This document shows, piece after piece, positions 218 through 18,174 of a DNA stretch of 43,924 nucleotides (the first letter of the stretch is position 1; each line of letters opens with the position of its first letter). The position numbers and the translations under genes are program-made. The notes below the pieces were generated by a model. That model was not told where the DNA came from. It ran no database searches and saw only the letters and a list, made by a program, of their open reading frames with translations. Origin of the DNA: a virus (taxonomy: Duplodnaviria; Caudoviricetes); the IMG/VR virus record IMGVR_UViG_3300017769_000025, positions 1 through 43,924 of that record. The stretch is one strand, 5' to 3'.

Positions 218-679
218 TTACGATTTAAAGAATGGGTCTACTCCAAGTTCGAACTTTTTAATATCTTTAACGTTAATCATAATGGATAAATATGGGGGAT
301 TACTGTAACCATCATATTGGCCAATTGCCTTTGCGCCATTTATTGTTCCGCTAATATAATCAAATTCTGAGCCAGGTATTTCAAAATCTTTTTGGTTTTT
401 CATACTTTTGACAAGTTCATAATACCTATCAGTTAGTGCTTCTCCATCAGGATGATTTGCCCATGTGTCTCCTCCAATAAGTTCAACTATTTGGTCTGTT
501 CCTAAGTAGTCTGTTATATATTTCCAATCTGCATCAAGCTCTTCTGGTTCTGCATTACCTTCTTCTTTATTATACCAGTCTTGCTTAAATCTTTTAGCCA
601 TTTTTTTAAGTTCTGCTGGCGTTGTAGCCATCATATCATTTTCATTGATAAATTCTTCAAATAATTTAATATTTTTCAT
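218..679 (-). CDS. Putative internal head protein (capsid-targeting leader), function unknown
   Basis: N-terminus MKNIKLFEEFINE resembles the T4 IP capsid-targeting sequence MKTYQEFIAE ending in an I-x-E cleavage site. Confidence 0.6.
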   Translation of the reverse strand: MKNIKLFEEFINENDMMATTPAELKKMAKRFKQDWYNKEEGNAEPEELDADWKYITDYLGTDQIVELIGGDTWANHPDGEALTDRYYELVKSMKNQKDFEIPGSEFDYISGTINGAKAIGQYDGYSNPPYLSIMINVKDIKKFELGVDPFFKS

Positions 680-704
680 AATTTTAATTTAATATTTTAA
701 TTTT

Positions 705-1130
705 TTAAACTTCTGCAACTGTTAAGTCTCTATCGCCATAAGAAGCCATCATCCATTGCTTAGATCTTTCATCCCATAAATAAACATATTCTGCCCATCC
801 ATCATCTTCAGCATCTGCTAAATAATTTGCAATTTTAGTAATATTACCAGACATTGGTCCAGAATTTCTATCATCTTTATAAAAGTTTATATTTTTAGGA
901 TTTACTTCTAAACCTGAACCTGCGCCTTGTGAAATTACATAATCTACATTCTTTCCACCTTTATAACCTTTTCTTAAGATAGGTAATACATTTTCTGGAT
1001 AACCATCATAATGCATATAAACCGATGTGATGTTTCCTTTTTTATCAATTTTTCCAAATTGAGAACGTGTACCTTCGTTTATTTCTTGAGACTCATTAAT
1101 AAAGTCGTTAAAATTCTTAATGTTGTTCAT
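705..1130 (-). CDS. Putative internal head protein carrying a conserved phage HxDGYP-family domain
   Basis: Leader MNNIKNFNDFINESQEINE, then GTRSQFG...SVYMHYDGYPE...WAEYVYLWD, matching a widespread uncharacterised phage family (M[GS]TRSxIG...HxDGYP...EYxY). Confidence 0.65.
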   Translation of the reverse strand: MNNIKNFNDFINESQEINEGTRSQFGKIDKKGNITSVYMHYDGYPENVLPILRKGYKGGKNVDYVISQGAGSGLEVNPKNINFYKDDRNSGPMSGNITKIANYLADAEDDGWAEYVYLWDERSKQWMMASYGDRDLTVAEV

Positions 1131-1156
1131 AATATCTTTTTATTTTTAATATTATA

Positions 1157-1165
1157 TTATATATC
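1157..1165 (-). promoter_or_regulatory. Putative late promoter GATATATAA
   Basis: Exact 9-mer recurring upstream of several minus-strand virion genes, analogous to the T4 late TATAAATA box. Confidence 0.6.
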
Positions 1166-1168
1166 AAA

Positions 1169-1468
1169 TTAAAATATCTTTGTTTCTGACTTTGGGTACA
1201 TTGAACACATATGATAAATTCGAACTATTTTAGTAGCTAAATTGGTTGGACATTTTAGTGCATTTAATTGCAAAGAATCATATAAGTAGCCGTCAAATAA
1301 TCCATATAATGCGTTTTCAATAGATCTTGTTGTTTTAATATTTTCATGACTTTTATCTATATCTTGTAAATCATATCTATATAAACTAACTTCTTTAATT
1401 AAGTTCATAATTTCTTCTCTAGTTTCTGAATTCATTGATTCATGTCTGTTAAATCGTGTATAGCTCAT
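1169..1468 (-). CDS. Hypothetical protein, probably early-expressed
   Basis: 99-aa ORF with no capsid-targeting leader. It has a terminator and its own host-like promoter upstream. Confidence 0.7.
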   Translation of the reverse strand: MSYTRFNRHESMNSETREEIMNLIKEVSLYRYDLQDIDKSHENIKTTRSIENALYGLFDGYLYDSLQLNALKCPTNLATKIVRIYHMCSMYPKSETKIF

Positions 1469-1492
1469 CTTGTTTAAGTTTTAATTATAATA

Positions 1493-1524
1493 TAAATATA
1501 ACTATTTCCGGTGACCCGTGAAAA
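1493..1524 (-). promoter_or_regulatory. Putative host-RNAP (Bacteroidota sigmaA-like) early promoter
   Basis: Minus strand TTTT-N20-TATATTTA, versus the Bacteroidota consensus TTTG-N19-21-TAnnTTTG (one mismatch in each element). Confidence 0.45.
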
Positions 1525-1565
1525 TTTTTAGGCAACTTTTTTTCAATAGTTATTAACAATTTTGC

Positions 1566-1595
1566 AAAAAAAATCCAGGACTTGCCTGGATTTTT
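1566..1595 (-). terminator. Intrinsic terminator, possibly bidirectional
   Basis: Inverted repeat aaaaatccagg (1569-1579) / cctggattttt (1585-1595) with a 5-nt loop, ~20 nt after the stop at 1615. Confidence 0.85.
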
Positions 1596-1614
1596 AATAT
1601 TATAACTTTTTATT

Positions 1615-2499
1615 CTAACTTTGATCTTTAGCTATGTCATTAGCTTGAGCTCTAAACTGATCCATCATGTTTTTAGATTTCAATCCTAAATCATCTAATG
1701 CCTCTTTGCCAAACTTTTTTTCCAGCTCTTTATTACTGCTTTTTAGAACTTGCATAAATTTTTTATATTTAGCAGTTTTCTTTCTGTATTTTGCAAATGC
1801 ATTATCAACGTCATCTGGGTCAGCCTCGTCCATTGCTGCCATAACCTTATCAAGAGTATCTAAATTATCGATAGCTTTATCAAATAAACCCTGAACATCT
1901 GTTTTTTGAATTTGATCTATCATTTTATCGATTTCTTGTTCTTCTCTTGTTGTTTCTTTTCCATTTAATCTTGAAAAAAATCCTTCAGTTACTTTAGCCA
2001 AACCAACATAATCTTTAGCATATTGTTTCAACATTCTTTCGTTATAATATTCTTCTAATTTGTCTAAGAAAGCCTCGTGTGAATAATCCATTCCTGGAGT
2101 TACATATTCTCCCATATATTTTCCATGAGGAGAATTTAAAAAACCAAGTGCTTGTTTTTCTGACATGCCTTTATCTTGTAAAACTTCTATTGCAGCATCA
2201 TATGCTTTTTGAATGTCTCTGTTATTTAGATTTGACATTTCTTCAAGAAAAGCAACATAGCCTAAACTTTTTCTGGCGTTTTTTGCATTTGCTTCATTTA
2301 TAAATCCACTAAATGTAGTGTGTACCATTTCTTCTTTTCTATTTTTAAGATATTCTTCTCGTTCTTTCTTCTTTTTCTTTTGCTCTTTCTTAGCATCTCC
2401 TTTACCAGCAGGTATATCACCGCTTCCTACTTCTCCACCTTGTGGAAAGGCAGGATTTCCCATGCCTCCAATATTTGTTGGCGTAACGTTTTCGTTCAT
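1615..2499 (-). CDS. Putative multi-module internal head protein
   Basis: Likely start is ATG at 2499, overlapping the upstream stop (TAATG). Gly/Pro-rich then poly-Lys N-terminal part, an internal leader-like motif HTTFSGFINE, and a second site KVTE|GFFSRL. Confidence 0.6.
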   Translation of the reverse strand: MNENVTPTNIGGMGNPAFPQGGEVGSGDIPAGKGDAKKEQKKKKKEREEYLKNRKEEMVHTTFSGFINEANAKNARKSLGYVAFLEEMSNLNNRDIQKAYDAAIEVLQDKGMSEKQALGFLNSPHGKYMGEYVTPGMDYSHEAFLDKLEEYYNERMLKQYAKDYVGLAKVTEGFFSRLNGKETTREEQEIDKMIDQIQKTDVQGLFDKAIDNLDTLDKVMAAMDEADPDDVDNAFAKYRKKTAKYKKFMQVLKSSNKELEKKFGKEALDDLGLKSKNMMDQFRAQANDIAKDQS

Positions 2500-5400
2500 T
2501 ACCAAGCTAAGTTTCTTTTCTTAAGTTTAGCTAATTTATCTTTAATTCTCTTTGCATATTCCTCAGATTCTTTTTGAGAATATCTAGCTTCCCATTCAAA
2601 TTCTTTAGAATCTTTACCATATTTAGCTTCAGCCTCTTCAATTGTTGCCATATAACCTGACCATCTTTCATAGTCTGAAATTAAACCATTTATAAAGTTA
2701 CTAATGTCATTTAATTTATAAGCTCTACCGTCTGCTCCTACACCTGCAATAAGTTCTCCGTACTTATTTTTTTCTTGATTTTTTAAACCATCTTTCATAA
2801 CCTTAGTTGCATCATCAATTGCATCTTCTACTAATTTATCTATTGGTAATTCACTTGCTCTCTTTTGTAGAATTTCTCTATATCTTGCCATGTTTGCATC
2901 TTTAAATTCTTTATCAGATTTAAACGCTAATGCACCTTCTTTAGCTTTTACTCTATCTTCAATTTTTCCTTTAGCATTTGGAAGAGCGTTAGTATTAATT
3001 ACAAATGCAGCATCTGCAACATCAATTACTCTTTTTACATTATAAATACCGGATGCGTCCCAACCTCTATACTCTTTATTAATTCCAATATCAGAAGATG
3101 ATTTTCTAGGATCTAGAGTTAAAGACATTGTCATTTTTCTCTTAATATAATCTCTTTTAATATATGCGACGTCTTTTCCCATGCCTAATGCAAGTATTGT
3201 ATTTGCTGGAATTTTACCAGCAGAATTATATGCAGATTTTGAAGTATCAGCATAGGGGTTGTCTTTTTCTTGAGTTGTATAATAAACAACTAAGCCTTCT
3301 GCTTTTTTACCTAATTTAGGATCAATATCTATTATTTGATCATCTGTTATTTTGTCTAATTCTATTTTACTAAAGCCATAAATTGCTTTTAGAATTTGTT
3401 TACTACCTCTTTTCATAGTAAGAAGTCCTCTAAGTTTAGAACTCTTTAATGCTTCATTAAGTTCTAAAGATTCTTCTATTGAGCCAATAAATTCTTCAAC
3501 ATCATCATTATCAAGCATTGAGTATATGAATTCATCTCCGGCTTTATTAGAAACTCTTATCTCGTCTCCTTTAATTTCAGCTGAAACTCCTTTCATACCT
3601 TTGATTGCTTTTTTAATTTCTTTATATGGGTCTTTAACTTCATTAAGTTCTAAAGATTCATTAACGAATTGTTGGAAGTTTGTGTATATCATTGTTTCTT
3701 CTATTTTATTTGATTCATACTGTTGTACCATTGCATAATGATTCTTTATGAAATTAAGAAATTTTTCATATGAATCCTTTTGAGTTTTTGGAGTATCGAA
3801 TGCTTTAAACTTTTCATGTTTAAATACCTTTTTTATAAAGTCTTCTACATTTTTAGCTCCTCTTGCAATGCCTGTTAATTTTGAAGTAAAACTCTCGTCT
3901 AATTTGTAAGATTCTTCCTGCATGTGATCTCTATCTAATTCATAGTTAGATTTATAGGCGACAAACTCTCTTTTAGTTTTAGTATCTTTAAGCTTTACCT
4001 TGTGTCCTCCAACAAATTTAAGAATTTCATATTGGTAACCATTAACAGTATTACCAATAATATCTCCTACTTTAAAATCATATCTGTCTTTTCTTTTTTC
4101 AGTAATTGATTCGTTCATGAACTGACTAAATTCTGTGTATATTTTTGATTCTTTCATTGCCTTTGCTTTTGTTTTTAAGTCTTTCAATTCGCCTTTAAGC
4201 TCTCCTGATTTTGCGTATCTTTCAATACCCCAATTAAAGGCTGCTGTAAATAGCTTGTCAAATGGTAGTTTTGAGAATTTTCTACCATACGTTGAATTTT
4301 CTAACCAATCAGAAAATGCTTGAGCCATTCCTTTAGAAAGTTTAATACCTTCAACTGAATTAGTTTCTCCATTTACAACTGATTTTAATAATTTTTTTGC
4401 ATCTACTCTCGCTTCATTCACAGATTCTGTCATTACTGACGTTATATCTTTATAAGATATTTCATATTCGTCTCCGTCTTGATCGACTGCAAATACTGAA
4501 TTATCATGCCACATTGCAGCGTTGTCAGCATTGTTAGAATCAGGATTGTAGATGATGTATTCTTTTCCATCTCCGGTTTGAATCATTGCATCGTCTGCAT
4601 TACCTAGTTTTTTTAATAATTTTTTCTTGTCATATCTAGCTTCAGTAACTGTTGATTCTTCTAGTACATCTGCCTTTACGATTAAGTAATAAGGACCTCT
4701 ACTAGAACCTACTACTCTACCTTGATCGGAATCAATAACCGTTGACTTAGGTACAGATATAACATTTGATTTATTTTCATCAATCCATTTAGCTCTAGCA
4801 GTGGAGCTATTAAAAGATATTAATGGATTACCATCTACTGTTTTTTGTGTATTTACATATTTAGCTCTAGCTTCAGTAACTGCAGATTCTAAAATATCAA
4901 ATATGTGGAAACCTCCACCTGACATTGCGTCTGACCATTCAACGTGTTTAAGTTCTACTTCTGGATGAACTGCCTTAATAGAATCAATTACTTTTTGTGG
5001 GCTAATTTTATAACCATACTTAATTTGAATTCTCTTTTTGTTAAGCTTAGTAATTTTTGGCTTAGTTCTACCTGTATAATCTATTGCTAATTGATATGCA
5101 ACGTCTGACTTATTTAAACCTTCATCTATTGAAACTGATTCATTATACGGCATTAATAACTTAGTTATTTCTGCAACATGATGAGAATATGCATTTCTAG
5201 CAAAATCAGCATAACTATCATAAGCCATTCCTTCATCATTAAACCAATCATCTAATATTTCTTCGAATTTTTTTAAATCTAAACCTTTAAACATTTTAGG
5301 ATCAATCATATCGTACATGTCTTCATAATCACCTTGACCTGCTCTAATAGCTTGAGATATTTCTGCATACTCTTTAGTCTTTGATATTTTCTTAAGTTCA

Positions 5401-6011
5401 GCATTACTCATTTTTTCATTAACTTCATTAGATTCTTTAACTCCTATAAATTTAGCAAGTGCTGATTTAAGATCATCGTAAGTATATTTTCCTGAAAGAG
5501 CATCTGCTAATACAGTACCTTCTTTTTTACCTCCATTAACATATAAACTTTTGTGATCGAATCCTGGCCAATCACCTCCTCCAAATTCATTATCTGGATC
5601 TAGCCCTAAGTCTACGCCTAACGTAAATGATAAAGAATGTCTTCCATGGAATTGATCATTATATCCAAGTTTACCTTCTCTTTGATAACGACCTACGTTT
5701 ATTTTTTCATTAACTTCTGATTCTGTAACCAAACTATTTAATATTTTAGTTCCATATTTAGAAAGACTTACGCCATCTTCTTCTATTTTAAAAAATCTTT
5801 TATTACCTCTTGTCCATTTTGATGGAGCAGAAGAGTGTTGACTAACTATATTATTAAATTCTTCAACTGTGATTTTACCATCCTTTAATGCTTCGATAAT
5901 TGCATTTCTAACTCTAGCTGAATTGCCTACAGTTTTAGCAGGATGTGCTTCAGTATATCTTCTCTTAAGAGTTATATTTCTTTCGTTTAAAAATTCTTCA
6001 AATGTTGCCAT
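2499..6011 (-). CDS. 1170-aa putative capsid-packaged polyprotein with ~11 modules separated by prohead-protease-like sites
   Basis: Leader MATFEEFLNE. Recurrent linkers ESEVNE, ESNEVNE, ESVSIDE, ESAVTE, ESTVTE, ESVNE, ESITE, ESYKLDE and ESLELNE (twice) are spaced 62-105 aa apart. Late promoter motif upstream. Confidence 0.7.
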   Translation of the reverse strand: MATFEEFLNERNITLKRRYTEAHPAKTVGNSARVRNAIIEALKDGKITVEEFNNIVSQHSSAPSKWTRGNKRFFKIEEDGVSLSKYGTKILNSLVTESEVNEKINVGRYQREGKLGYNDQFHGRHSLSFTLGVDLGLDPDNEFGGGDWPGFDHKSLYVNGGKKEGTVLADALSGKYTYDDLKSALAKFIGVKESNEVNEKMSNAELKKISKTKEYAEISQAIRAGQGDYEDMYDMIDPKMFKGLDLKKFEEILDDWFNDEGMAYDSYADFARNAYSHHVAEITKLLMPYNESVSIDEGLNKSDVAYQLAIDYTGRTKPKITKLNKKRIQIKYGYKISPQKVIDSIKAVHPEVELKHVEWSDAMSGGGFHIFDILESAVTEARAKYVNTQKTVDGNPLISFNSSTARAKWIDENKSNVISVPKSTVIDSDQGRVVGSSRGPYYLIVKADVLEESTVTEARYDKKKLLKKLGNADDAMIQTGDGKEYIIYNPDSNNADNAAMWHDNSVFAVDQDGDEYEISYKDITSVMTESVNEARVDAKKLLKSVVNGETNSVEGIKLSKGMAQAFSDWLENSTYGRKFSKLPFDKLFTAAFNWGIERYAKSGELKGELKDLKTKAKAMKESKIYTEFSQFMNESITEKRKDRYDFKVGDIIGNTVNGYQYEILKFVGGHKVKLKDTKTKREFVAYKSNYELDRDHMQEESYKLDESFTSKLTGIARGAKNVEDFIKKVFKHEKFKAFDTPKTQKDSYEKFLNFIKNHYAMVQQYESNKIEETMIYTNFQQFVNESLELNEVKDPYKEIKKAIKGMKGVSAEIKGDEIRVSNKAGDEFIYSMLDNDDVEEFIGSIEESLELNEALKSSKLRGLLTMKRGSKQILKAIYGFSKIELDKITDDQIIDIDPKLGKKAEGLVVYYTTQEKDNPYADTSKSAYNSAGKIPANTILALGMGKDVAYIKRDYIKRKMTMSLTLDPRKSSSDIGINKEYRGWDASGIYNVKRVIDVADAAFVINTNALPNAKGKIEDRVKAKEGALAFKSDKEFKDANMARYREILQKRASELPIDKLVEDAIDDATKVMKDGLKNQEKNKYGELIAGVGADGRAYKLNDISNFINGLISDYERWSGYMATIEEAEAKYGKDSKEFEWEARYSQKESEEYAKRIKDKLAKLKKRNLAW
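3452..3659. repeat. 22-bp exact direct repeat flanking a 62-codon module
   Basis: cttcattaagttctaaagattc at 3452-3473 and 3638-3659 (encodes ESLELNE); offset 186 nt, in frame. Confidence 0.95.
4635..4882. repeat. 17-bp exact direct repeat flanking a 77-codon module
   Basis: tctagcttcagtaactg at 4635-4651 and 4866-4882 (encodes VTEAR), extending with 2 mismatches into gattct; offset 231 nt. Confidence 0.9.
5410..5717. repeat. 17-bp exact direct repeat flanking a 97-codon module
   Basis: attttttcattaacttc at 5410-5426 and 5701-5717 (encodes EVNEK); offset 291 nt. Confidence 0.9.
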
Positions 6012-6039
6012 TATTTTTCTTTATTTTTTGTCCTATCTA

Positions 6040-6048
6040 TTATATATC
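6040..6048 (-). promoter_or_regulatory. Putative late promoter GATATATAA
   Basis: Exact motif 28 nt upstream of the polyprotein start. Confidence 0.6.
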
Positions 6049-6052
6049 AATA

Positions 6053-7624
6053 TTATCTAGACTCAAGTCCTATGTTTTTATTAAATGGATTGTTTGCGCT
6101 TGCCCCAGCATAAAACTGAAACCTAGCTGCTGCAAAATCTTTAATTTTAAATTCTAAACCAGTTGACTTTCCACTAACTAATAAATATAATTGTTGAACC
6201 GTGCTAACTCTATTTATCATTGAAGATAAACCATTAACATATACTTTATTATCGTTTATTGTTCTTACCAGTTCTTTAGAAAGTGGATAAAACATGATAC
6301 CAAATCTATCTTTATCTTTTAGTCTTTTTTTATAGTATTGAATTGCTTTTAATTTATCGGTACATTCTCTTGGTCTAGACTTTGATTTATTCCAAAACAT
6401 ATCCATAATTTGCCACCATTCATTTTGATCCTTCTTATATAAATCATCTATCTTTTTCATTAAACCAACTCTAGAAATTTGAAGTGGCTTAATTCCTAAA
6501 GCATCTAAAATATACTTATATCCAGATGATTTATCTTTATATAAAATTTGATTTGCTAAAACAATATGAGTTAACCATACCTCAGATTGTCTACCTGTAT
6601 TTGGCTCTAAATAACCTGCATTTAATTTTGGGTTTGCAATTAGTTTAAGAATATTGTCGTATGTTATTTTTTCTTCTTTATTTAATTCCATTGCTGCCTC
6701 TTCACCTGGGTTAGAAACTCTTCCATCTATTATTCTTGCCATTGCTGCAATAGAAGGAGTTCCTCCTTTATTACCTGCCTTTGAAGATACTGACCAGCCA
6801 TCAAAATAAAAGTCGACTAATGCTGCATTTGCATCTGTTGGAAAGCTTAAACCTTTACCAGGATCTTTTACAACTGAAAATAAAAAAATACCTCCCAATA
6901 TTTCTCCAAAATCATTTGCTATTTTCTTAAGAGATCTTTCATCTATATTATAATCTTGTTGTAAATTTTTACCAAAATCTAAATTAAACTTTTTACCCGC
7001 TTTTTTCAGAAATTTACTTAAGTTATCGTACTTTGGAATTGAGGTCTGGTCTCTAGTATATTCTACTAATTTTATAAGATATTCTGTATAATTTTCTGGA
7101 AAAGTTTGTGCATATTTTCTTTTTAAATTTTGTATAGTTGTAGCACATATACTATCTATTGTTTCATATGTTCCTTCTTCTAATTCAAGCGCAACTGGTG
7201 TTAATTTTCCACCAGAAACTGGCGCCTTTTCACCTGACGCGGTTTTACCTATATTGCTAACAATACTATATTCTTCTCCTTTTAAAAACTCAGTTGTTCC
7301 TACGCTAATGTTTTTTAATATTGTAATAACTGCTGTTGCGAATTGACCTGATAGAGACTTTTCATCTCCTTTTTGATATATGTCTATTTTAAAAGAACTG
7401 TCAGGTAAACCTGCGTCCATCAGCATTTTTTGTAAATTATCTGTAGGGTCTACTCCTAAATCTGCTCTTAAAGATTCTCCAGTTTTAGCCTTTCCAACTG
7501 CTCCTTTATAAGAAGTAGATTGCATCCAACTATTATAAGCTGGCTCGAACCATTTTCTTTTATACTTATCTCTTGATTCGTATAACCTGTTTAGTTCTAT
7601 TTGAAAACTAGTTCTTATGCTCAT
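6053..7624 (-). CDS. Putative PD-(D/E)xK restriction-endonuclease-fold protein
   Basis: NDFGEILGG helix followed by FPTDANAALVDFYFDGWSVSSKAG (E...D...SxK arrangement). Possible L-Y-E cleavage site at residue 16. Confidence 0.45.
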   Translation of the reverse strand: MSIRTSFQIELNRLYESRDKYKRKWFEPAYNSWMQSTSYKGAVGKAKTGESLRADLGVDPTDNLQKMLMDAGLPDSSFKIDIYQKGDEKSLSGQFATAVITILKNISVGTTEFLKGEEYSIVSNIGKTASGEKAPVSGGKLTPVALELEEGTYETIDSICATTIQNLKRKYAQTFPENYTEYLIKLVEYTRDQTSIPKYDNLSKFLKKAGKKFNLDFGKNLQQDYNIDERSLKKIANDFGEILGGIFLFSVVKDPGKGLSFPTDANAALVDFYFDGWSVSSKAGNKGGTPSIAAMARIIDGRVSNPGEEAAMELNKEEKITYDNILKLIANPKLNAGYLEPNTGRQSEVWLTHIVLANQILYKDKSSGYKYILDALGIKPLQISRVGLMKKIDDLYKKDQNEWWQIMDMFWNKSKSRPRECTDKLKAIQYYKKRLKDKDRFGIMFYPLSKELVRTINDNKVYVNGLSSMINRVSTVQQLYLLVSGKSTGLEFKIKDFAAARFQFYAGASANNPFNKNIGLESR

Positions 7625-7625
7625 T

Positions 7626-9464
7626 TTATTTGCTTTTAAATTCTGAAAATGTTAAAACTTGTTCTTGCAATTCAACACTTTCTTCTATTGTTTGTTTTAA
7701 TAATTTATACATTTTATGCATAGATTTTGGAGTCATGGACTTATATGTCTTTTCGTCTCCATCTAATAAAGCGTTTCTCACCTTTGTTGCACTAATGTTA
7801 TCGTCTGTTCTTGGAATTTCTTCTAATCTGAAGCTATCTTCGACTCCTAATTCTCCTCTATATTTTGGGTTATTAACTTGATAGCCATAGGTTTTCATTC
7901 TATCACTACCTGTTCCCCATAATACAGGTTCATACTTAGGTCTCATGGCGTTAAACATTTTATCAATTGCTGCGGTATCTATAACATACACTGTCTCAAT
8001 AGGATATTCCTTCATCACTTGTTTTATCATATTAACCTGCATTGTTTCATCAAAGGGTCTCTTAAATTTATCTTCTGCCTTCTTTGTTTTAGCTTTAACT
8101 AAAAATATAACCGTTGGAAGTCCATTTTGTTTATGTAAATGCTCAACGACTTTAACATGTCCTAATGTAAATGGCTGAAACCTACCAACAAACATATTAA
8201 CTTCTTTAGCTCCTCTTTCAGGATGGTTTACTTTTAAACCTTCGTTAATTGGATTTGTTTGTCCTTTAAGTGTATCGTTAATTTTAAAAGTTTTAAAATC
8301 CATTACACCGTCTTCCTCTACTTTTTCGTAAATTCTTGCTTCAATCTTTTCTATAATACTATTTAGACTATTAAATGTATCTCCTGCTAAAACTCCATTT
8401 TCTTTCTGTCTTTTCTTTCTAAAAGTACCTAATGTAATTTTTAACAATTCTGCAACTTCTCTTGATTCATTAACAAGTCTAATAGTTTCTTGATTTGTTA
8501 TCATTTTTGGGTTTAAATCAAACTCTTCATTATTTGCAAATTCAGCGCTATCAAAATTCATACCAATAAAGCTTGCTCCATTGTCTTTTATAAATGAATT
8601 AAAACCTGCTGTCATTAATTCTAAATATCTCTCATCAACTTCTTTACTTTCAAGTTGTATTTCACTAAAATCAAATGCATTAAAATATTCAATAAGTTTT
8701 ACTACTGTAATTTGATATGCATCTGAACTCTTTCTTTCTTCTTGTTCTTTAATTTCTTTTAATGGACTCTGTAGTTTAAAGTTCTTTAATGATTTGCCTT
8801 CTACAAAACTTACAACTAAACCATCAATGTCTTTATGAATATCATTATTTAACATTGACTTATGTATAGACTCATTAAATGTTGTAAATGCTCTATAAGA
8901 AAAACCAAAGTCTTGTAGTTCTATCTTTGCCTGTTCTCCTTGTAAACTTAATATATTAACTAGTTTTTCTTTTTGATAGTCTGATAATGTGCCTTCAAAA
9001 ACAACTTCAGGAGATTGAACTTCTAAAAGGTTTGCCCATTTTTCTAAAATTCTAGGATCTCTAATTACTTTTTTAATCTGAGTTCTATCTTCATTTAACA
9101 CTTGAATATGTGTCAGTATAAGACTATTTTTTGGAAGTGTATCATATTCAATGTCTACTGTTTTTTCGCTAACCATATAATCAAATCCAAATTTCCAATC
9201 ACTTGGCATTTGTTGAATTGTCTCATCTAATAATGCGTTAAAGTGGCCTATACCTTTTTCATAGTAAGAAACTATTGTTCTATCTATTTTATTAAGTGGC
9301 TGCTTATTACCTGATTTATAAAACTGCAAGAGTCTGTCTTCTCTTCTCGCATGTAGGCTACTTGCTTGAATCTTTTCAGTAACTAAACATTTCTGTGCTA
9401 AAAGATTATTAAAATCCTCTTTTTCAACTGACTCATAATATGTTCTTAAATCTTGTAATGCCAT
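7626..9464 (-). CDS. Fusion of a degenerate RNA-ligase-fold domain and a HIGH-class nucleotidyltransferase (cytidylyltransferase/NMNAT-like)
   Basis: C-terminal domain has VGRFQPFTLGH, GSDR and ISATKVR. N-terminal domain has VTEKIQAS (motif I variant), PEVVFEG, IDGLVV (motif IV) and FKLQ (motif V). An INE|G site lies between the domains. Confidence 0.75.
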   Translation of the reverse strand: MALQDLRTYYESVEKEDFNNLLAQKCLVTEKIQASSLHARREDRLLQFYKSGNKQPLNKIDRTIVSYYEKGIGHFNALLDETIQQMPSDWKFGFDYMVSEKTVDIEYDTLPKNSLILTHIQVLNEDRTQIKKVIRDPRILEKWANLLEVQSPEVVFEGTLSDYQKEKLVNILSLQGEQAKIELQDFGFSYRAFTTFNESIHKSMLNNDIHKDIDGLVVSFVEGKSLKNFKLQSPLKEIKEQEERKSSDAYQITVVKLIEYFNAFDFSEIQLESKEVDERYLELMTAGFNSFIKDNGASFIGMNFDSAEFANNEEFDLNPKMITNQETIRLVNESREVAELLKITLGTFRKKRQKENGVLAGDTFNSLNSIIEKIEARIYEKVEEDGVMDFKTFKINDTLKGQTNPINEGLKVNHPERGAKEVNMFVGRFQPFTLGHVKVVEHLHKQNGLPTVIFLVKAKTKKAEDKFKRPFDETMQVNMIKQVMKEYPIETVYVIDTAAIDKMFNAMRPKYEPVLWGTGSDRMKTYGYQVNNPKYRGELGVEDSFRLEEIPRTDDNISATKVRNALLDGDEKTYKSMTPKSMHKMYKLLKQTIEESVELQEQVLTFSEFKSK

Positions 9465-9474
9465 ATCTTATTTT

Positions 9475-9894
9475 TTATAAATAGTTTTTCCAATTTTTTT
9501 CTGCTTCTAATGCTTCTAATTCAAAAGGGTGGTTTGAATATTCATAACCTGCATCATATAATTTTTTAAATTCTTTTTGATCTTGAATGGTGTGAGTATG
9601 TTCATGTAAAAGAGATCTGATTATTTGTTCAGGTGTATTTGTAACATCTGAATAGATATAAATTATATCTGCATCTGGATCATATTGTGCATTTGGATTT
9701 CCTTGCTCTTCAATTAAATCTTCAACTGCAACTGCTCCTATTCTATCCCATATATTTTCATACACTTCAACCTTTTTAGCTTTACCACCTAAATCTTTAA
9801 CTATTTGTGGATATACTTTTTTAATTATAGATTCTATCTTTCTATGAGATAGTCCTTCATTAATAAAATCTTCAAATAGTTTTATATTTTTCAC
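9475..9894 (-). CDS. Zincin-like metallopeptidase with capsid-targeting leader
   Basis: GTG start; leader MKNIKLFEDFINE; LLHEHTH (HExxH) and downstream HPFELEA supplying a third ligand. Confidence 0.75.
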   Translation of the reverse strand: MKNIKLFEDFINEGLSHRKIESIIKKVYPQIVKDLGGKAKKVEVYENIWDRIGAVAVEDLIEEQGNPNAQYDPDADIIYIYSDVTNTPEQIIRSLLHEHTHTIQDQKEFKKLYDAGYEYSNHPFELEALEAEKNWKNYL

Positions 9895-11850: not shown

Positions 11851-12603
11851 TTAACTTAATGAAGATTGTAATGTACCTACGCATGCTCCGTAGTCATCTC
11901 CACATTTATCTAAAATACCGTCTACTACTTCTTGTGCTTTTGCTTCATCAAAATCATCACCATGTGCTTTCTTTAAAATAGCAAATGCATATTCTTTAAA
12001 ATCTTCAGCAGACTTAACATCAGCTTCTTCAACTTTAGCTTCTTCTATAACCACAGATTCGATTTTCAATTTATCAAGTGCAATATTCATCGCAGGTATT
12101 TCATATGGTTCTTGACCATTTTGATAGTCTACAAGAGCCATAGCTCCATCCATTGAAAATTTGATAATTTTAAATCTACCAGGGAACCTTATGTTTTCAC
12201 CATAAGCAACTTTTCCTTTTTCAACAGCCTTCATAGCTTTTTTAATTTTAGGATGAACTCCTTCGCTTAATTCTCCTTCTTCAACTGATTCTTTTACTTT
12301 GTAAGTTTCTCCACCTACTGTAAACTCATCTTCACCTTTTTCTTTAGCATCTTTAACAGCTGCTCCAAATGCATTACCTTCAGTTTCTACCTCGTCAGTT
12401 TCACCAACTAATTTAGCAAAAAATTCAGTTCTCTGTTCTTCAGCTATTTCAGCAACAGTAGATACTTCATACTCTGCTAATAAGTCAGCAAATCTTTGAG
12501 CTTCAGAAGTTCTCTTCGTAGTTGCTTCTTCTTTTAATTTAGTTTCCATTGCTGCTTTTCTAGTTTCAGAAAATGTAGCAAATGATTGAATTTTATTTTC
12601 CAT
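11851..12603 (-). CDS. Acidic prohead core / internal protein with multiple cleavage-like sites
   Basis: Leader KIQSFATFSE; Glu-rich; sites VETE|GNAFG, LSE|GVHP and VIEE/VEE|A. Late promoter motif upstream. Confidence 0.55.
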   Translation of the reverse strand: MENKIQSFATFSETRKAAMETKLKEEATTKRTSEAQRFADLLAEYEVSTVAEIAEEQRTEFFAKLVGETDEVETEGNAFGAAVKDAKEKGEDEFTVGGETYKVKESVEEGELSEGVHPKIKKAMKAVEKGKVAYGENIRFPGRFKIIKFSMDGAMALVDYQNGQEPYEIPAMNIALDKLKIESVVIEEAKVEEADVKSAEDFKEYAFAILKKAHGDDFDEAKAQEVVDGILDKCGDDYGACVGTLQSSLS

Positions 12604-12654: not shown

Positions 12655-14154
12655 TTACTCAAATTGAAATTTCTTTACACTGTACTCAAACTGCTGTTCT
12701 CGATATATTGACTGCCTTGCCTTGGAGTGTTTCATTAAATAATTACTCCATTCCTCAGTAGCCAAGTCGTCTACGAAGTCTATAATAAGAACGCTACTTT
12801 TAGAGTGATGTTGTCTTAATCCTCTACCAATTGACTGTCTAATTATAACCTCAGATTTAAAACTTTCTGTAAAGAAAATATTGTGAATTTTTTTAATTGA
12901 TATACCCGTAGAGAATGTACCATAACTTGCAACAATTGCAACCTCGTCTCCTGCTTCCATCTTTTTCTTATACTCTTCTCTAACATCTTTGTCTGTGCCG
13001 CCGTCTACATAATAGACTGCTTTATTACTTTCCTGTCTAAGTTTTTCATATAGCTTTTTACCATGTTCGATTCTATGAAAAAGTATTAGACTATTTCTTG
13101 GTATTTTACCTATAACCTTACATATAAAATTAAGACGCGGCTCTGAATTTATAATATAGTTTTGTTCTAATTGAAATAGGTCTTTATTTTCATATCTGTT
13201 TTGAGCCATTTCTGTAAAGGCATTCTTAGCACTTTCAGGCGCATAATCCATTTCAATTACTTTAACCTTACAATTTGCTATATACCCCTCTTGTTGTAAG
13301 AAACTAGCGCTCACCTCACTGATTAGTGGACCTGTATAAGCCATTAGTGTTAAGCGATCTAATGTACCGTCTTTAGGAATTGTACCTGAAAGACCATATC
13401 TATATTCTGCATTTACACATTTCTGTAAGATTGTTTTAATAGATTGGCTTTTCATTTTGTGACACTCATCAATTATAACAGCGTCGAACTGATCAAAATA
13501 TTCTTGCTTCTTTTTAACGAGAGATTGATATGTACCTATTACTACATTCCTACCATCTCTAATCTTTTTACCACTAAATATTTGTTGAATTTTTATGTTG
13601 ACTCTATTTGCATAATTATAGTCTGAAAAATCTTCAGTTGCTTGAACAACCAATGAAACATTAGGTACAATGAATAAAATCTTCTTTGCCTTTTCTTGTT
13701 CTAACAAATATGCAACTGTAAGAAAACTAATTAACGTCTTTCCTGCAGATGTAGCAAGTTCACTAAGACACTTTCTAAACTTAAGAATATTATACGCAGC
13801 TTCTATTTGATAGTCCCTAGGAGTTATCTCTGAACCCTCAAAGAAGGCCAAAGCCCATTTCTCAAAATATTCGGCAGTAACGTCTTTATCAAAAAGAGAT
13901 TTTACACCATTGATGTCTAGTTCAAACCTATATTCTTTACAAACATTATAAACATATCTCCATAAACCTGCCGGAATCCATTTATTATCTTTGAAATATG
14001 AAATGTAACCATCCCATATTCCCTTTTTAACTAGAGGGTTAAATCTCCAGCTATCGATTCTTTTAGTTAGTGATATGTTTAGTTGTTCAAGTTCAAGTTC
14101 AGATGCTTCATCAACTCTTAAATATTGTTTATTCTCTGTGAGAGTAAGCTCCAT
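12655..14154 (-). CDS. uvsW: UvsW-like SF2 DNA helicase
   Basis: PRDYQ Q-motif, LATSAGKT Walker A, IIDECH Walker B, GLSGT, FSTGISIKKIHN and QSIGRGLR; N-terminal WDGYI segment as in T4 UvsW. Confidence 0.93.
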   Translation of the reverse strand: MELTLTENKQYLRVDEASELELEQLNISLTKRIDSWRFNPLVKKGIWDGYISYFKDNKWIPAGLWRYVYNVCKEYRFELDINGVKSLFDKDVTAEYFEKWALAFFEGSEITPRDYQIEAAYNILKFRKCLSELATSAGKTLISFLTVAYLLEQEKAKKILFIVPNVSLVVQATEDFSDYNYANRVNIKIQQIFSGKKIRDGRNVVIGTYQSLVKKKQEYFDQFDAVIIDECHKMKSQSIKTILQKCVNAEYRYGLSGTIPKDGTLDRLTLMAYTGPLISEVSASFLQQEGYIANCKVKVIEMDYAPESAKNAFTEMAQNRYENKDLFQLEQNYIINSEPRLNFICKVIGKIPRNSLILFHRIEHGKKLYEKLRQESNKAVYYVDGGTDKDVREEYKKKMEAGDEVAIVASYGTFSTGISIKKIHNIFFTESFKSEVIIRQSIGRGLRQHHSKSSVLIIDFVDDLATEEWSNYLMKHSKARQSIYREQQFEYSVKKFQFE

Positions 14155-14170
14155 TCATTCAACATAATTT

Positions 14171-14614
14171 TTAAACGAGATCTTTAATTGCAAGTCTATT
14201 ACGTACTGCAAATCCCATATTATCGAGAGTCTTTATTGATTCTCTATAAAATTCAACTTGATTTTCTAATTGAGATAAAATCATTTTATCATCTGCTAAT
14301 TCAGCTTCTAGAAATTGTGCTTTTATTTTATCAGTTAATTTATAATCATAGTTGTAATATCTTATCCAGGCCTCTTTCCATTTAATGTCAACTTGTTTTT
14401 TCTGCTCTTTTGTTTTAAGCTGCACATACATTAACTGTTCTACCATTAATTGTCTTGTATGTAAAATATCACCAATAACAATTTCCATTCCACTTAAAGT
14501 TTTAATACCATGTGCAAGTGCAGTTATTTTTTTAGTCCATCTATCTCTTTGTACTCCGAGTTTTTCATCTAACTTTAATATCTTACTTGCCTTTGTGTCT
14601 TTTTGTTGTTCCAT
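14171..14614 (-). CDS. uvsY: UvsY-like recombination mediator
   Basis: 147-aa all-helical protein next to uvsW, with a YY..YDYKL segment and a C-terminal K.LDNMGF..RN.L pattern reminiscent of UvsY. Confidence 0.55.
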   Translation of the reverse strand: MEQQKDTKASKILKLDEKLGVQRDRWTKKITALAHGIKTLSGMEIVIGDILHTRQLMVEQLMYVQLKTKEQKKQVDIKWKEAWIRYYNYDYKLTDKIKAQFLEAELADDKMILSQLENQVEFYRESIKTLDNMGFAVRNRLAIKDLV

Positions 14615-14814
14615 TAAAATAGTCCTTTCTTATTACTTTTTATAAACGTCGATGTAGTCAATTTCTTTTTAAATTTAGGCTGACTCATCTTAATACCTTT
14701 ACCTTCAAAATCTTCTTCGTTAAATTTAAAATCTAACATTTTCTTTAAATTTTTAAACCTGTTTTTATCTCTATAAAACTTGTCTAATTCCTCATCCATA
14801 TCTATATCAAACAT
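14614..14814 (-). CDS. Hypothetical protein
   Basis: 66-aa ORF overlapping both neighbours, which suggests translational coupling. Confidence 0.6.
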   Translation of the reverse strand: MFDIDMDEELDKFYRDKNRFKNLKKMLDFKFNEEDFEGKGIKMSQPKFKKKLTTSTFIKSNKKGLF

Positions 14815-15889
14815 ATCTCATATCAAGTTTATCGTTAGTAAAATAATCTTCTAACTCGGAAAGAGATATTTTTATTTTTTCATTGTAACAAACCTTTACA
14901 AGGTCGTTTAAATCTTTTATACTATATTTATCTATTTTTTTATCCTTTAGATATTTAGTCCACATAAATACTTTCTTACCTGCTTTTAATTTTTCAATAG
15001 ATTTTTTAAGACCTGTTTCGTCGTTATCTAACATATATCTACTACTATCAATATAGTCTAATTTAGTAGTATCTCTACCAGCTGTACAAAGAGCAATTGA
15101 GTTTCTCATAAACATTGCGTCAAGTGGACCTTCAAATATTGTAACCGGGTTTTGAAAATTTACCCTTAGTGCACCAAATAAAGTTGATACATTATTAAAT
15201 TGCTGACGCGTTAGTTCGTCTAATTCAACTGGCTTATTTAAAATTGATTCATGTATTTTACTTAAATCATAAGTTAAATATCTTGAGCCTTTACCTTTCA
15301 TTCTTCTACACTGTGCACCTATGATTTTTCCATTAAGTGATTTATTTAAAATCCATAATCTTTGATCTTTTGGATTAAATAAAAAGTTGTTCAATTTTTT
15401 ATGCAGGAGTCTTTCTTTTAATTTAAACCATATCCAATCTCCTATTTGAATTGGCTTTGCTCCAGTTGCTTTTGAAAAATCTTCTACTTCAACTGAAAGC
15501 TCTAATATTTTTTCATACACAAAAGGTGTAAACTTCTCAGAAGTATCTACAGTATTTTTTCTGCTTTTAACATAGTCTATTAATGTTATAGCATCCATTT
15601 TATCTGGCAATTGTACGCCAAAATCTTTTAGAAAATAATAGATGTTGGTGTGATAATCACAGTTAAAACAATGATATTGTAGGGTGTCCCAAAAAAGATT
15701 ACCTCTCTTTGCGGAGTCATCTCTACTAGAATCGCCACAATAGGGACATGCCAGGTTTAATCTACCTGACATATCCTTAATCATTTGTTTGTTGTGACTT
15801 GAGTGAGATTTTACAACTACCTCTTTAAGAAGTACTTTAATCTTTTCCTTTAACTCGTGTGTTAATTCAATGTTAGAGCTCGAGATCAT
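14807..15889 (-). CDS. gp61: DNA primase (T4 gp61-like)
   Basis: Zn ribbon CPYCGDS...YHCFNC; TOPRIM motifs IFEGPLDAMF and LDNDETG; KDLND. Confidence 0.92.
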   Translation of the reverse strand: MISSSNIELTHELKEKIKVLLKEVVVKSHSSHNKQMIKDMSGRLNLACPYCGDSSRDDSAKRGNLFWDTLQYHCFNCDYHTNIYYFLKDFGVQLPDKMDAITLIDYVKSRKNTVDTSEKFTPFVYEKILELSVEVEDFSKATGAKPIQIGDWIWFKLKERLLHKKLNNFLFNPKDQRLWILNKSLNGKIIGAQCRRMKGKGSRYLTYDLSKIHESILNKPVELDELTRQQFNNVSTLFGALRVNFQNPVTIFEGPLDAMFMRNSIALCTAGRDTTKLDYIDSSRYMLDNDETGLKKSIEKLKAGKKVFMWTKYLKDKKIDKYSIKDLNDLVKVCYNEKIKISLSELEDYFTNDKLDMRYV

Positions 15890-16802
15890 TCAAAAAAGAT
15901 TCTAAGTCATCTCCGCCTGCTGGTGTAGCTTCCTTTTCAGCTTTAGGAGTTGAAGTAGGCTTTTCAGCTTTAGGAGTTGAAGTAGGCTTTTCAGCTTTAG
16001 GAGCTGGAGTACTACCTGCATCAAACTGATTTGTTAGAGCATCCATTGCATCACCAGGGTTTAAATACATTTTGATAACGCTGTTAACGAAGTTTCTAGT
16101 TTCTTCATCCCATGGTCTATATTCAAACTGTTTTAGAGATGGAGCACCTTCTAGTTCATTTTTAATAGTCTCCATATCTTCTTTAGTTCTTTCAGCTGTT
16201 TTTTCACCTAATGCAATTGCTGATTTTGAAGATGAAAATTTAGACTTATCATAATTATTATAGTCGTTTTGTCTTGTAATAACTAATTCAAAGTTTTTAC
16301 CTTCAAATAAATCAAACACTTGAGTTGGGTCGCCAAAAGTAGGCTTTAATTCAGCGTCAATTTTTTCTTTGATCTTATAACCGAATTTGAAAATTCTATA
16401 AGTACCTTCTAATTCAGGTTGTTGAGGGTCTTTAATAATTTTCACTAACGAAACATAAGACTCTCTTCTTTTTAATTTATCAGAAGCTTTTCTATCTACA
16501 GCGCTTTCTGATTTTCTTAATCTAAAAAATGCATCAGAAACTGGACAATGCTCACCAACAGTACTTGGAGAATCTACTAACTTAGACTCACCATTTGGTC
16601 CTGTTAGCCAGTTTACATATTTTTTGATTAATGAATTTCTTGGATTTTCGATATTAGGAACGAATCTTACTAATGCTGAATACGTTCCATCTTTGCCATC
16701 ATCGGCAGAAGGCTTATACATCATGTTACCATTTGCATTTACCTCTTGTTCATGTGTGTTGATGTCCTCGACACCAATACTAAAAATGTTAAAATCTTCC
16801 AT
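15873..16802 (-). CDS. gp32: Single-stranded DNA-binding protein (T4 gp32-like)
   Basis: ALVRFVP, CPV, IIKDPQQPELEG, FKFGYKIKEKI, FDLFEGKNF and NYDKSKF motifs; acidic C-terminal tail DDLESFLNDLEL. Confidence 0.92.
   Translation of the reverse strand: MEDFNIFSIGVEDINTHEQEVNANGNMMYKPSADDGKDGTYSALVRFVPNIENPRNSLIKKYVNWLTGPNGESKLVDSPSTVGEHCPVSDAFFRLRKSESAVDRKASDKLKRRESYVSLVKIIKDPQQPELEGTYRIFKFGYKIKEKIDAELKPTFGDPTQVFDLFEGKNFELVITRQNDYNNYDKSKFSSSKSAIALGEKTAERTKEDMETIKNELEGAPSLKQFEYRPWDEETRNFVNSVIKMYLNPGDAMDALTNQFDAGSTPAPKAEKPTSTPKAEKPTSTPKAEKEATPAGGDDLESFLNDLEL
15933..16003. repeat. 27-bp tandem repeat (~2.6 copies) in the SSB C-terminal linker
   Basis: Unit cttttcagctttaggagttgaagtagg, encoding PKAEKPTST. 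Confidence 0.9.
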
Positions 16803-16804
16803 AA

Positions 16805-16853
16805 CTTTAATTTACTTTTAATCTTTAATTTACTTTAATTTACTTTAATTTAC
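16805..16853 (-). promoter_or_regulatory. Repeat-rich unstructured SSB leader, candidate translational auto-repression operator
   Basis: mRNA GUAAAUUAAA x3, GAUUAAAA, GUAAAUUAAA directly before the AUG; parallels the UUAAA-rich T4 gene 32 operator. Confidence 0.65.
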
Positions 16854-16877
16854 CGTTTATACTTTAAACTTATAATA

Positions 16878-16905
16878 TTATATAGTCAACTTTAAAATAG
16901 TTTCA
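16878..16905 (-). promoter_or_regulatory. Bipartite promoter TGAAAC-N15-TATATAA for the ssb-primase-uvsY-uvsW operon
   Basis: Exact match to the motif also seen at 137-164 and 17031-17058. Confidence 0.7.
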
Positions 16906-16906
16906 T

Positions 16907-17025
16907 AATATGAACCTTGTTTGCGTGTCTAACCGACTTAGTTTGTGCTATTGCACCTCATTTGCTTCAGACAGGGTCCGATAATTAGTGTTCAAATATG
17001 AACTTAGTTTATCGTTTTCCATATA
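16907..17025 (-). ncRNA. Putative structured small RNA (alternatively a 24-aa sORF at 16948..17022)
   Basis: Has its own promoter (17031-17058) and is more GC-rich than its flanks. Nested stems: CGAUAA/UUAUCG enclosing GUUCA/UGAAC, and UGUCUGA/UUAGACA enclosing GUGC/GCAC. Confidence 0.4.
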
Positions 17026-17030
17026 CAATA

Positions 17031-17058
17031 TTATATATCTCTATTTGGAATAGTTTCA
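17031..17058 (-). promoter_or_regulatory. Composite promoter TGAAAC-N15-TATATAA that also contains GATATATAA
   Basis: Plus strand gtttca 17053-17058 and ttatatatc 17031-17039. Confidence 0.65.
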
Positions 17059-17102
17059 ACCATATAGGCTAAAAACTTTTTTTAATTTTTTTTTATATTT
17101 TC

Positions 17103-17131
17103 TGAAACAAAATAGCTAGCGGGCTATATAA
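17103..17131 (+). promoter_or_regulatory. Plus-strand promoter TGAAAC-N16-TATATAA, antisense to the resolvase gene
   Basis: tgaaac 17103-17108 and tatataa 17125-17131. Confidence 0.5.
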
Positions 17132-17147
17132 CTTAAGTATTTAAGCC

Positions 17148-17804
17148 TCAGGGAAGATTAGGTTCTAAGGTTCTCATTAAAGAGTTTAAGTAAAAAGCGT
17201 CGACTAAGTCATCAAAGGGCTTTGGGATAGACTTACCGAATTCAACAGTTTTAGCGAACTTCCAGAAATTTGTCTCCTCGAGAAATTTTTCACCTGTAGA
17301 ATTATTTATAAAAACTTCCCATAAAGCAAGCTTATTCATATTACCTTTACCCGCATGTTTTTTAATCGTTGAAGGAGCAATTGTTAAAATGTCTTCGGGC
17401 TTAAAGTATTTGAGAAGTTTAATTTTAAGAATAGATGCAGCTGCTGCCATATCAATAATATTATTAGTCCCAGCAGAACTACCATAAGATACCCCTTCAA
17501 ATGCTATTTTAAAAGAGTCTTCTTTATCTATATGTTTTGTAATTAATTCGATAATATCATTTGACATAATATCATATCGCTTAATTTTTGCGAGCTCAAC
17601 ACTAGAATAATCAACGTGAGTTTCCCAATCAGGTTGAAAAACAAGAGTAACACCTTCTATTAAGGCCAAGTCTTCTTGCATTTTAATAGCCTTCTTTGTG
17701 CCTGTCTTTTTTAAATAAGAAATAAAATGATATTGTTCTGTGTTACTATTAAAAACACAAATACCTGGAGAATTTAAAGAAAAATCAATTGTGATAAAAT
17801 TCAT
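17148..17804 (-). CDS. ruvC: RuvC-like Holliday junction resolvase
   Basis: Start re-assigned to ATG 17804 (MNFITIDFSLNSPG). Catalytic-type motifs IDFS, AFEG, PSTIKK..GKGN..K and DDLVDAF. Confidence 0.85.
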   Translation of the reverse strand: MNFITIDFSLNSPGICVFNSNTEQYHFISYLKKTGTKKAIKMQEDLALIEGVTLVFQPDWETHVDYSSVELAKIKRYDIMSNDIIELITKHIDKEDSFKIAFEGVSYGSSAGTNNIIDMAAAASILKIKLLKYFKPEDILTIAPSTIKKHAGKGNMNKLALWEVFINNSTGEKFLEETNFWKFAKTVEFGKSIPKPFDDLVDAFYLNSLMRTLEPNLP

Positions 17805-17805
17805 A

Positions 17806-18174
17806 TTAAAAACCTTTACCCATTGAAGCGCCGATTGCAGTTCCAACAAGTCTTGAAGTTAATAAATCATATAGAATACCCTTTTGAACACCTAATACCT
17901 TAGCTATCATTTTGCCCATAGACTTTCCTAAAGCAAAGCCTGTAAGACCTCCGATAATAGAACCAAATAAACCTTCATTTGTCATTTCGTTATTAAATCT
18001 ATTAATATCTAGATTTCCATCCTCATTTCTATATTCATTTAAAAAAGAATCTACTGCTTGATCTACTTTTTCTTCTAATTCAGGAGTCCATTCCTGTTGA
18101 AGACCTTCTGTTAAAAGTTCCATCTCCTTTTCAGTGACTCTGTTTTCTTCTAAATATTCTATAAATGTTTTCAT
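17806..18174 (-). CDS. Virion protein with capsid-targeting leader, acidic pro-region and a C-terminal glycine-zipper hydrophobic segment
   Basis: MKTFIEYLEE leader, then NE|GLFGSIIGGLTGFALGKSMG...VGTAIGASMG (GxxxG repeats). GATATATAA at 18178-18186. Confidence 0.65.
   Translation of the reverse strand: MKTFIEYLEENRVTEKEMELLTEGLQQEWTPELEEKVDQAVDSFLNEYRNEDGNLDINRFNNEMTNEGLFGSIIGGLTGFALGKSMGKMIAKVLGVQKGILYDLLTSRLVGTAIGASMGKGF

Follow-up and report, generated by a model that had tools for sequence, protein, structure and literature searches.

A shufflable in-frame module array with predicted head-protease linkers in a polyprotein gene of an uncultured marine T4-like phage

The window analyzed here, the whole 43,924-nucleotide stretch of IMG/VR record IMGVR_UViG_3300017769_000025, is a piece of a large T4-like phage: matches to PHROG and Pfam families gave a UvsW-like helicase, a primase, gp32, a RuvC-like resolvase and baseplate wedge and neck genes, all on the minus strand, and the source is an uncultured marine T4-like phage. 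On the same strand lies an open reading frame (ORF 2499-6011) of 1170 amino acids (aa), in which ten linkers of the form E-S-x(0-4)-[ILV]-[NTD]-E set off eleven mutually unrelated modules: a first one of 102 aa (M0), nine inner ones of 62-105 aa and a last one of 317 aa (M10). Relatives of this ORF were not found among annotated phage genomes. As judged by comparison of homologous sequences, the ORF is a shufflable in-frame cassette array and, by analogy with T4, it would likely furnish virus particles with an exchangeable set of mini-proteins.

The strict linker motif was counted in the 32 minus-strand ORFs of the window, and ten of its 12 occurrences belong to ORF 2499-6011. ORFs that begin with a short leader similar to that of the polyprotein hold 11 occurrences in 2135 aa (ten of them in ORF 2499-6011), against one in the 11791 aa of the others. 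Three pairs of exact direct repeats lie inside these linkers, 22 bp long around M9 (offset 186), 17 bp around M4 (offset 231) and 17 bp around M1 (offset 291), all offsets being multiples of 3 (Table 1). The first-pass annotation of this DNA had described these pairs as in-frame, linker-coding brackets of one module each, and its description was exact. In allele L065, which is nearly identical, the M1 pair measures only 11 bp. The whole window has six exact direct repeats of at least 17 bp, the other three lying in low-complexity tandem tracts. The same annotation had named a codon-shuffled null as a check: when the protein was kept fixed and the synonymous codons were shuffled 2000 times, three repeats of at least 17 bp arose in 1/2000 shuffles and a 22-bp repeat in 42/2000, which rules out codon bias alone as their source. 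An assembly chimera was ruled out by contigs from other runs bridging the same junctions (a record of run X3 at 4233-5666 and records of run X7 at 4627-5063 and 3292-4183). The long repeats bracket only three of the nine inner modules, and all three pairs join adjacent linkers (permutation p = 0.011); the remaining 42 of the 45 linker pairs have at most 10 bp in common. Along the ORF, the runs shared by successive linkers are 17, 5, 5, 17, 6, 5, 3, 7 and 22 bp.

Homologues of 643-2048 aa were compared, and in 58 of 83 M0 stands at the start and M10 at the end. The window and the 28 homologues with an M0 of at least 75% identity were treated as close alleles (n = 29) and parsed automatically into modules, a procedure that missed some linkers and produced three 6-residue artefacts, so that the counts are approximate. 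The close alleles showed 27 arrangements of about 24 module families, with 21 module pairs found in both orders. M3 and M6 are near-constant across these alleles yet swap order, M3 standing ahead of M6 in 21 and behind it in 7. Insertion/deletion events were collected pairwise and are not independent; 15 of the 59, located in collagen-like or low-complexity genes, were excluded, and the in-frame status of all 59, forced by the comparison of open frames only, was not counted as evidence. All 23 filled/empty events in the polyprotein family break at a linker or at a leader-like segment (22 by the motif rule and one by eye), with junction repeats of 2-22 bp (median 6 bp; at least 14 bp in 5/23). 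These alignments show that M0 and M10 are retained while the modules between them differ in kind and order, with the changes at the linkers, as the first-pass annotation had expected of orthologues, and they agree with its proposal of gain and loss by recombination at linker DNA, which can be widened since modules even switch genes.

In more distant relatives (L009-L025, L083-L087) M0 closes an array that lies upstream and M10 leads into a gene of its own with a leader; the fixed ends have thus themselves been rearranged. Other long ORF families with M5 (L027-L063, L088-L138; about 740-1340 aa) have module-sized indels at Glu-ending junctions with a different linker wording.

Precise deletions and circular junctions had also been predicted for this array. 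A precise 231-nt skip was present in run X12 and a precise 186-nt skip in run X8. Runs X8, X10, X12 and X16 together gave these two of the three skips and no exact 291-nt skip, and runs X1, X3, X4 and X7 gave none of the three. At the place of M1, the P0004 and P0006 proteins are exactly 97 aa shorter.

Among the 29 close alleles, M4 occurs within the polyprotein gene in the window allele only. In L001 and L145 it sits in the orthologue of another window gene, 11851-12603, as an insert of exactly 231 nt, and the same site is empty in G006 (L181). The insert of L001 is identical to the 231-nt unit of the window at 227/231 positions after a 12-nt rotation (226/231 for L145), the linker DNA that trails M4 in the window standing ahead of M4 in L001. 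M4 is flanked by the 17-bp repeat in the window and by a different repeat of 10 bp in L001; the two do not overlap and lie 2 nt apart, so that the crossover point is not fixed. The predicted empty M4 site of the window matches L069 at 44/47 positions. Since the 17-mer is present in the donor unit and once in the empty target, the crossover homology was already common to both. In runs X8, X10 and X12, M4 was found with the flank of the other gene as loose ends, and X12 also contains an M4-less polyprotein allele. A second module of 210 nt, which is not in the window, is identical at 201/210 positions after an 11-nt rotation, and in L075 and L151 M1 follows the leader of the gene orthologous to 705-1130 of the window. 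These comparisons show that the moving unit consists of one module and one linker, with crossover at varying places of the linker and hence circular permutation.

M9 differs from this pattern. Both of its flanks are the 22-bp native linker that precedes M10; this linker is single in the M9-less alleles L151 and L162, and it is not the flank of M9 at the other M9 positions (P0011, P0019). When viral contigs were searched for M9 in other surroundings, only two weak matches resulted. M9 alone looks like a duplicated target linker, for which either two crossovers at short homologies or the re-entry of a circle from the same site would suffice. Target-site duplication, which the first-pass annotation had suggested for all bracketed modules, is thus not supported as a general rule, since three of nine inner modules are bracketed, the median junction repeat is 6 bp and the M4 repeat pre-exists.

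Table 1. Features of the polyprotein gene, its recipient genes and the recombination genes in the window
Feature	Position	Strand	Basis or remark
Modular ORF M0 to M10, 1170 aa	2499..6011	-	Ten E-S-x(0-4)-[ILV]-[NTD]-E linkers
GATATATAA promoter-like motif	6040..6048	-	Upstream of polyprotein ORF
Leader, 10 residues, ends LNE, capsid-targeting-sequence-like	5982..6011	-	Sequence; similar leaders on neighbouring genes and stand-alone M10 homologues
M0, fixed first module, 102 aa including leader and linker	5706..6011	-	N-terminal in 58/83 homologues also ending in M10
17-bp repeat, copy before M1	5701..5717	-	Partner 5410-5426
M1, mobile, 97 aa, 291 nt	5415..5705	-	Missing or elsewhere in orthologues
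17-bp repeat, copy after M1	5410..5426	-	Exact repeat
M2, variable, 98 aa	5121..5414	-	In 8/29 close alleles
M3, nearly constant, movable, 83 aa	4872..5120	-	In 28/29 close alleles
17-bp repeat, copy before M4	4866..4882	-	Partner 4635-4651
M4, mobile 231-nt unit	4641..4871	-	Circularly permuted relative to copy in another gene
10-bp stretch in M4 trailing linker, second crossover window	4654..4663	-	Same as flanking repeat in other gene; L001, L145 filled, L181 empty
17-bp repeat, copy after M4	4635..4651	-	231-nt skip of run X12: 17 letters fit both sides
M5, widespread, 76 aa, predicted SH3/Sm-like barrel	4413..4640	-	In several unrelated long ORF families; model
M6, 105 aa, leader-like segment at end	4098..4412	-	28/29 close alleles
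M7, variable, 68 aa	3894..4097	-	3/29 close alleles (automatic parse); runs X1, X8 have alleles without M7
M8, 85 aa, leader-like segment at end	3639..3893	-	Orthologue comparison
22-bp repeat, copy before M9	3638..3659	-	Partner 3452-3473
M9, mobile, 62 aa, 186 nt	3453..3638	-	6/29 close alleles; precise 186-nt skip in run X8; other positions in P0011, P0019
22-bp repeat after M9, native linker before M10	3452..3473	-	Single in M9-less L151, L162
M10, fixed last domain, 317 aa	2499..3452	-	Stand-alone gene with short leader in distant relatives
Second recipient gene	11851..12603	-	Without M4 in window; carries M4 in L001, L145
Third recipient gene	705..1130	-	Without M1 in window; M1 behind leader in L075, L151
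UvsW-like helicase	12655-14154	-	PHROG/Pfam match
gp32-like gene	15873-16802	-	PHROG/Pfam match
RuvC-like gene	17148-17849	-	PHROG/Pfam match

We regard it as probable that the module chain is gained, lost, reordered and moved at shared linker DNA, likely by general recombination with a mini-circle or tandem-copy intermediate, and that the linker is also a predicted cut site of the head protease, which would free the modules in the capsid. Short homologies of about 6-22 bp between linkers would be recombined by UvsX/UvsW/gp32-type machinery, and the general recombination and replication genes at 12655..17849 of the minus strand may carry out the shuffling. Module-plus-linker circles would be excised, or tandem copies made, and then inserted at any similar linker; the two partners code for one peptide in one phase, which would preserve frame and cut sites. 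The exact repeats are best explained as crossover scars of recent events and not as sites of a dedicated integrase: with a median junction repeat of 6 bp, long exact repeats would mark recent or lucky events and are not required. In T4, tandem amplifications and deletions arise at microhomologies of 6-10 bp, according to the accessible part of PMC9391042, and the available text of PMC4122927 describes T4-like PeSL (early promoter plus stem-loop) repeats that move genes via mini-circles. A RecA-family (UvsX-like) gene was present in 5/5 related records. No tyrosine recombinase (PF00589) was found in these five or in the window's own record, and no serine resolvase in the five, all of them incomplete. 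The GTTRRRY core of attC sites is absent at 10/10 linkers, and none of the 22 weak inverted pairs found in a hairpin search recurs at linkers. Together with the T4 and PeSL precedents, these results make general recombination at linker microhomology the best reading.

A dedicated site-specific recombinase or transposase that inserts cassettes and duplicates its target is, by contrast, highly improbable. It would account for the flanks of M9, and GAATC lies within many of the short junctions, but an enzyme of this kind agrees poorly with repeat lengths that are unfixed between 2 and 22 bp, with two non-overlapping crossover windows for M4, with a 17-mer that existed beforehand on donor and target, and with the lack of attC core, recurring hairpin and tyrosine or serine recombinase in the partial records searched. 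For the same reasons the comparison with integrons made in the first-pass annotation describes the outcome and not the parts. A possible, if somewhat doubtful, alternative is that the shuffling is real but involves no circle, its sole routes being gene conversion and unequal crossing-over among co-infecting linear genomes (tandem duplication, loss and two-crossover capture). The tandem copies M3-M3 in P0014 and M5-M5-like in P0010 are of the kind it predicts, T4 amplifies segments likewise, and two crossovers at 5-7 bp homologies, involving two recipient copies, readily produce the duplicated linker of M9; the contigs of 8 runs showed no circle. On the other hand, the move of M4 to a place about 7 kb away, with exact length and rotated junction, needs a donor with linkers on both sides or a dimer, whereas a circle achieves it in one step, and mini-circles are documented for the PeSL repeats of T4-like phages in the portion of PMC4122927 consulted.

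Several observations weigh against the preferred reading, in which general recombination joins the modules at linkers that the head protease then cuts. The related records are only 16-59% complete, so that a recombinase may escape view. Neither a free circle nor a go-back joint was seen in the 8 runs, whose contigs are hardly able to show a 231-nt circle with 29-nt junction homology, and the permutation is accounted for equally well by a tandem dimer or by a donor in which the 29-nt repeat flanks M4 on either side. The predicted deletions hold for two of the three units, as an exact empty DNA site for the 291-nt unit was not found (the best probe match had 13/47 mismatches). The likeness of adjacent linkers, which the first-pass annotation had noted, holds for the long pairs of the window and not over the ten alleles with DNA, where the medians for adjacent and non-adjacent linkers were 6 and 6 (p = 0.54); runs of at least 14 bp occurred in 5/46 adjacent and 4/120 non-adjacent pairs (Fisher p = 0.07). 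On the protein side, the protease gene lies outside the 44-kb window, the loose [ILV]xE motif also occurs inside modules (ten cases, of which M0 has four, the one in the leader included), and no module belongs to a known family, so that the host-directed step is drawn from analogy.

A more specific form of the preferred reading seems to us plausible, if tentative: an integrase-free intragenic system in which module-plus-linker mini-circles of 200-300 nt re-enter similar linkers in any leader-bearing gene and, the joint being the head-protease site, each insertion would be in frame, capsid-targeted and freed as injected protein, with a combinatorial anti-defence payload drawn from a shared marine pool.

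At the protein level, the N-terminal leader would target the chain to the prohead core and a gp21-type protease would cut after [ILV]xE. The freed proteins of 6-11 kDa may then enter the host with the DNA and act against host defences like the T4 internal proteins, which is the weakest step of the proposal. The [ILV]-x-E motif ends 10/10 linkers; P3 is V, I or L at 164/166 parsed module ends, a figure to which the parsing rule itself contributes, and A, G, S or K predominate at P1'. PF03420 and PF07068 were each detected in 7/8 related records searched for a gp21-family protease and a gp23 capsid protein, Gp23 and Peptidase_S77 being encoded in G002-G008 and G001 being without them. In G004, whose polyprotein orthologue has M0 and M10 96-97% identical to those of the window, INE followed by A occurs at residues 7 and 26 of the capsid protein, and VNE followed by S at residue 172 of the protease. 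M10 has 141 relatives at E <= 0.001, and the 19/19 short stand-alone homologues picked carry leaders of 13-37 aa that end in [ILV]xE where the last linker ends. In the accessible text of the respective papers, T4 gp21 removes the short leaders of IPI-III and Alt (PMC9958956), Alt is cut at ITE and LTE (PMC5694885), and the internal proteins are diverse, injected and counter-defensive (PMC3012670, PMC9391042).

It is quite improbable that the chain stays unprocessed, its acidic linkers serving as flexible hinges of one polyvalent protein and [ILV]xE being a relic of fused leaders. M6 and M8 do end in whole leader-like segments, so former genes did fuse, and the full-length model has separate domains with low-confidence linkers and no fixed packing (predicted TM-score, pTM, 0.28). 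The P3 and P1' preferences argue otherwise, as does the occurrence of the same motif at the ends of the leaders of stand-alone homologues and at capsid and protease propeptide positions, and cleavage would be expected where a gp21-type protease encounters such sites. Somewhat less remote, yet still unlikely, is the view that the linkers are cut and the modules are core or scaffold filler or DNA-neutralising pieces with little host-directed function and near-neutral turnover. T4 gp21 degrades core proteins to fragments (PMC9958956, in the part available), a 30-residue segment of gene 11851-12603 (residues 76-105) is also found inside the G002 protease-scaffold protein (20/30 identical), no enzyme or anti-defence family was found, and the isoelectric points (pI) of the modules range from 4.4 to 9.4. 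Filler would not readily explain that inner modules are 80-100% identical across contexts, or that M5 has 31 invariant positions over 28 sequences and a confident fold; furthermore, strict [ILV][NTD]E sites occur in linkers only, which would leave the modules intact after cutting.

Searches of Pfam, PHROGs, PDB sequences and the ESM Atlas returned no usable family for the chain, the modules or M10. No Pfam family scored over the cut-off for the whole protein or any of the 11 modules, and no sequence match to T4 internal proteins was obtained, the best PHROG 'internal head protein' having E = 0.2. Foldseek with the full-length model, in which M1, M2, M4 and M7 are poorly modelled, yielded no PDB match at E <= 0.001 and, in BFVD, a single long match without meaning. 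M5 is predicted to fold as an SH3/Sm-like barrel: its model has a predicted local distance difference test score (pLDDT) of 86 and resembles SH3/Sm/Hfq barrels, a common fold (best Z 5.9).

At the protein level the system resembles T4 internal proteins, and at the DNA level PeSL shuffling, but it belongs to neither class. Like T4 IPI, IPII, IPIII and Alt, it has [ILV]xE sites (ITE and LTE in Alt), small and highly variable putative cargo, and a gp21-family protease and gp23 in the lineage, and its short Glu-ending N-terminal leader is a possible counterpart of theirs. Each T4 internal protein, however, is a gene of its own with its own leader, whereas here a single leader precedes as many as twelve modules of one reading frame, and the recombination joint coincides with the predicted cut site. 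As in PeSL shuffling, short repeats are the exchange points between unrelated cassettes. PeSLs are intergenic, combine an early promoter with a stem-loop terminator and move whole genes by mini-circle excision and integration (Arbiol 2010, as cited; Comeau 2014, PMC4122927, accessible part), whereas the repeats of the polyprotein are coding, in frame and 6-22 bp long and move domains within and between ORFs. Integrons combine attI and attC sites and the IntI integrase with an ordered array of exchangeable gene cassettes that move as circles. The polyprotein is likewise an ordered array of exchangeable cassettes, probably mobilized via circles, but no integrase was found in the incomplete records searched, the linkers have no attC core or hairpin and no fixed crossover base, and its cassettes are not separate genes. 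Polyvalent proteins are also long multi-domain phage proteins with variable domains that are thought to be packaged and injected (Iyer 2017, PMC5512222, accessible part). The available text reports self-processing metallopeptidase domains in them and does not contain the word 'linker'. In the polyprotein, Pfam recognised no polyvalent domain (MPTase, ART, LPD) and there was no clear fold match. Literature searches, which covered few subscription papers, gave no description of protease-site-jointed cassette polyproteins in phages, and none appears in the accessible parts of PMC5512222 and PMC7824862.

If the proposal is correct, a lytic phage would diversify its injected proteins without promoters, start codons or an integrase, and the use of the protease site as recombination joint would make any domain of 60-130 residues plug-and-play. 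The arrays would yield ready-delimited candidate injected anti-defence proteins, about 24 module families from one gene that have no counterpart in Pfam or PHROGs. The circular permutation of M4 also opens the DNA intermediate to direct tests.

With regard to expression, GATATATA occurs 10 times on the coding strand, 8 of them intergenic (minus-strand positions 1165, 6048, 12644, 17039, 18186, 28380, 42029 and 43289), and ATATATA is biased in the window (14 on the minus strand vs 1 on the plus strand). An upstream GATATATA is common to the polyprotein ORF, both recipient genes, the G004 protease gene and a gene of the G004 head cluster. The motif, GATATATA or GATATATAA, is likely the late promoter of the clade. 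It also stands upstream of a ribosomal protein S1-like gene at 42050-43249 (minus strand; Pfam S1, E = 3.7e-24).

Leaders similar to that of the polyprotein begin the minus-strand genes 218-679, 705-1130, 9475-9894, 9897-10349, 10571-11836, 11851-12603 and 17806-18174, and the leader-bearing genes in 218-12603 and 17806-18174 likely encode further capsid-targeted proteins. Gene 9475-9894 has a weak zincin-like match. In L209 (1423-3321) and L141 (1429-3342), a gp21-type protease and a scaffold-like acidic region are fused in a single frame of 630-690 aa. The G004 capsid protein has at most 50% identity to that of an uncultured 462-kb phage and 36-38% to those of Lak phages. The gene at 7626-9464 (minus strand) encodes a protein of 612 aa whose C-terminal domain is cytidylyltransferase-like and comes after a linker-like INE followed by G. 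The C-terminal tail of the gp32-like gene contains a 27-nt tandem repeat at 15933-16003 (44-bp exact overlap), and a 10-nt tandem repeat lies upstream of the same gene at 16804-16853.

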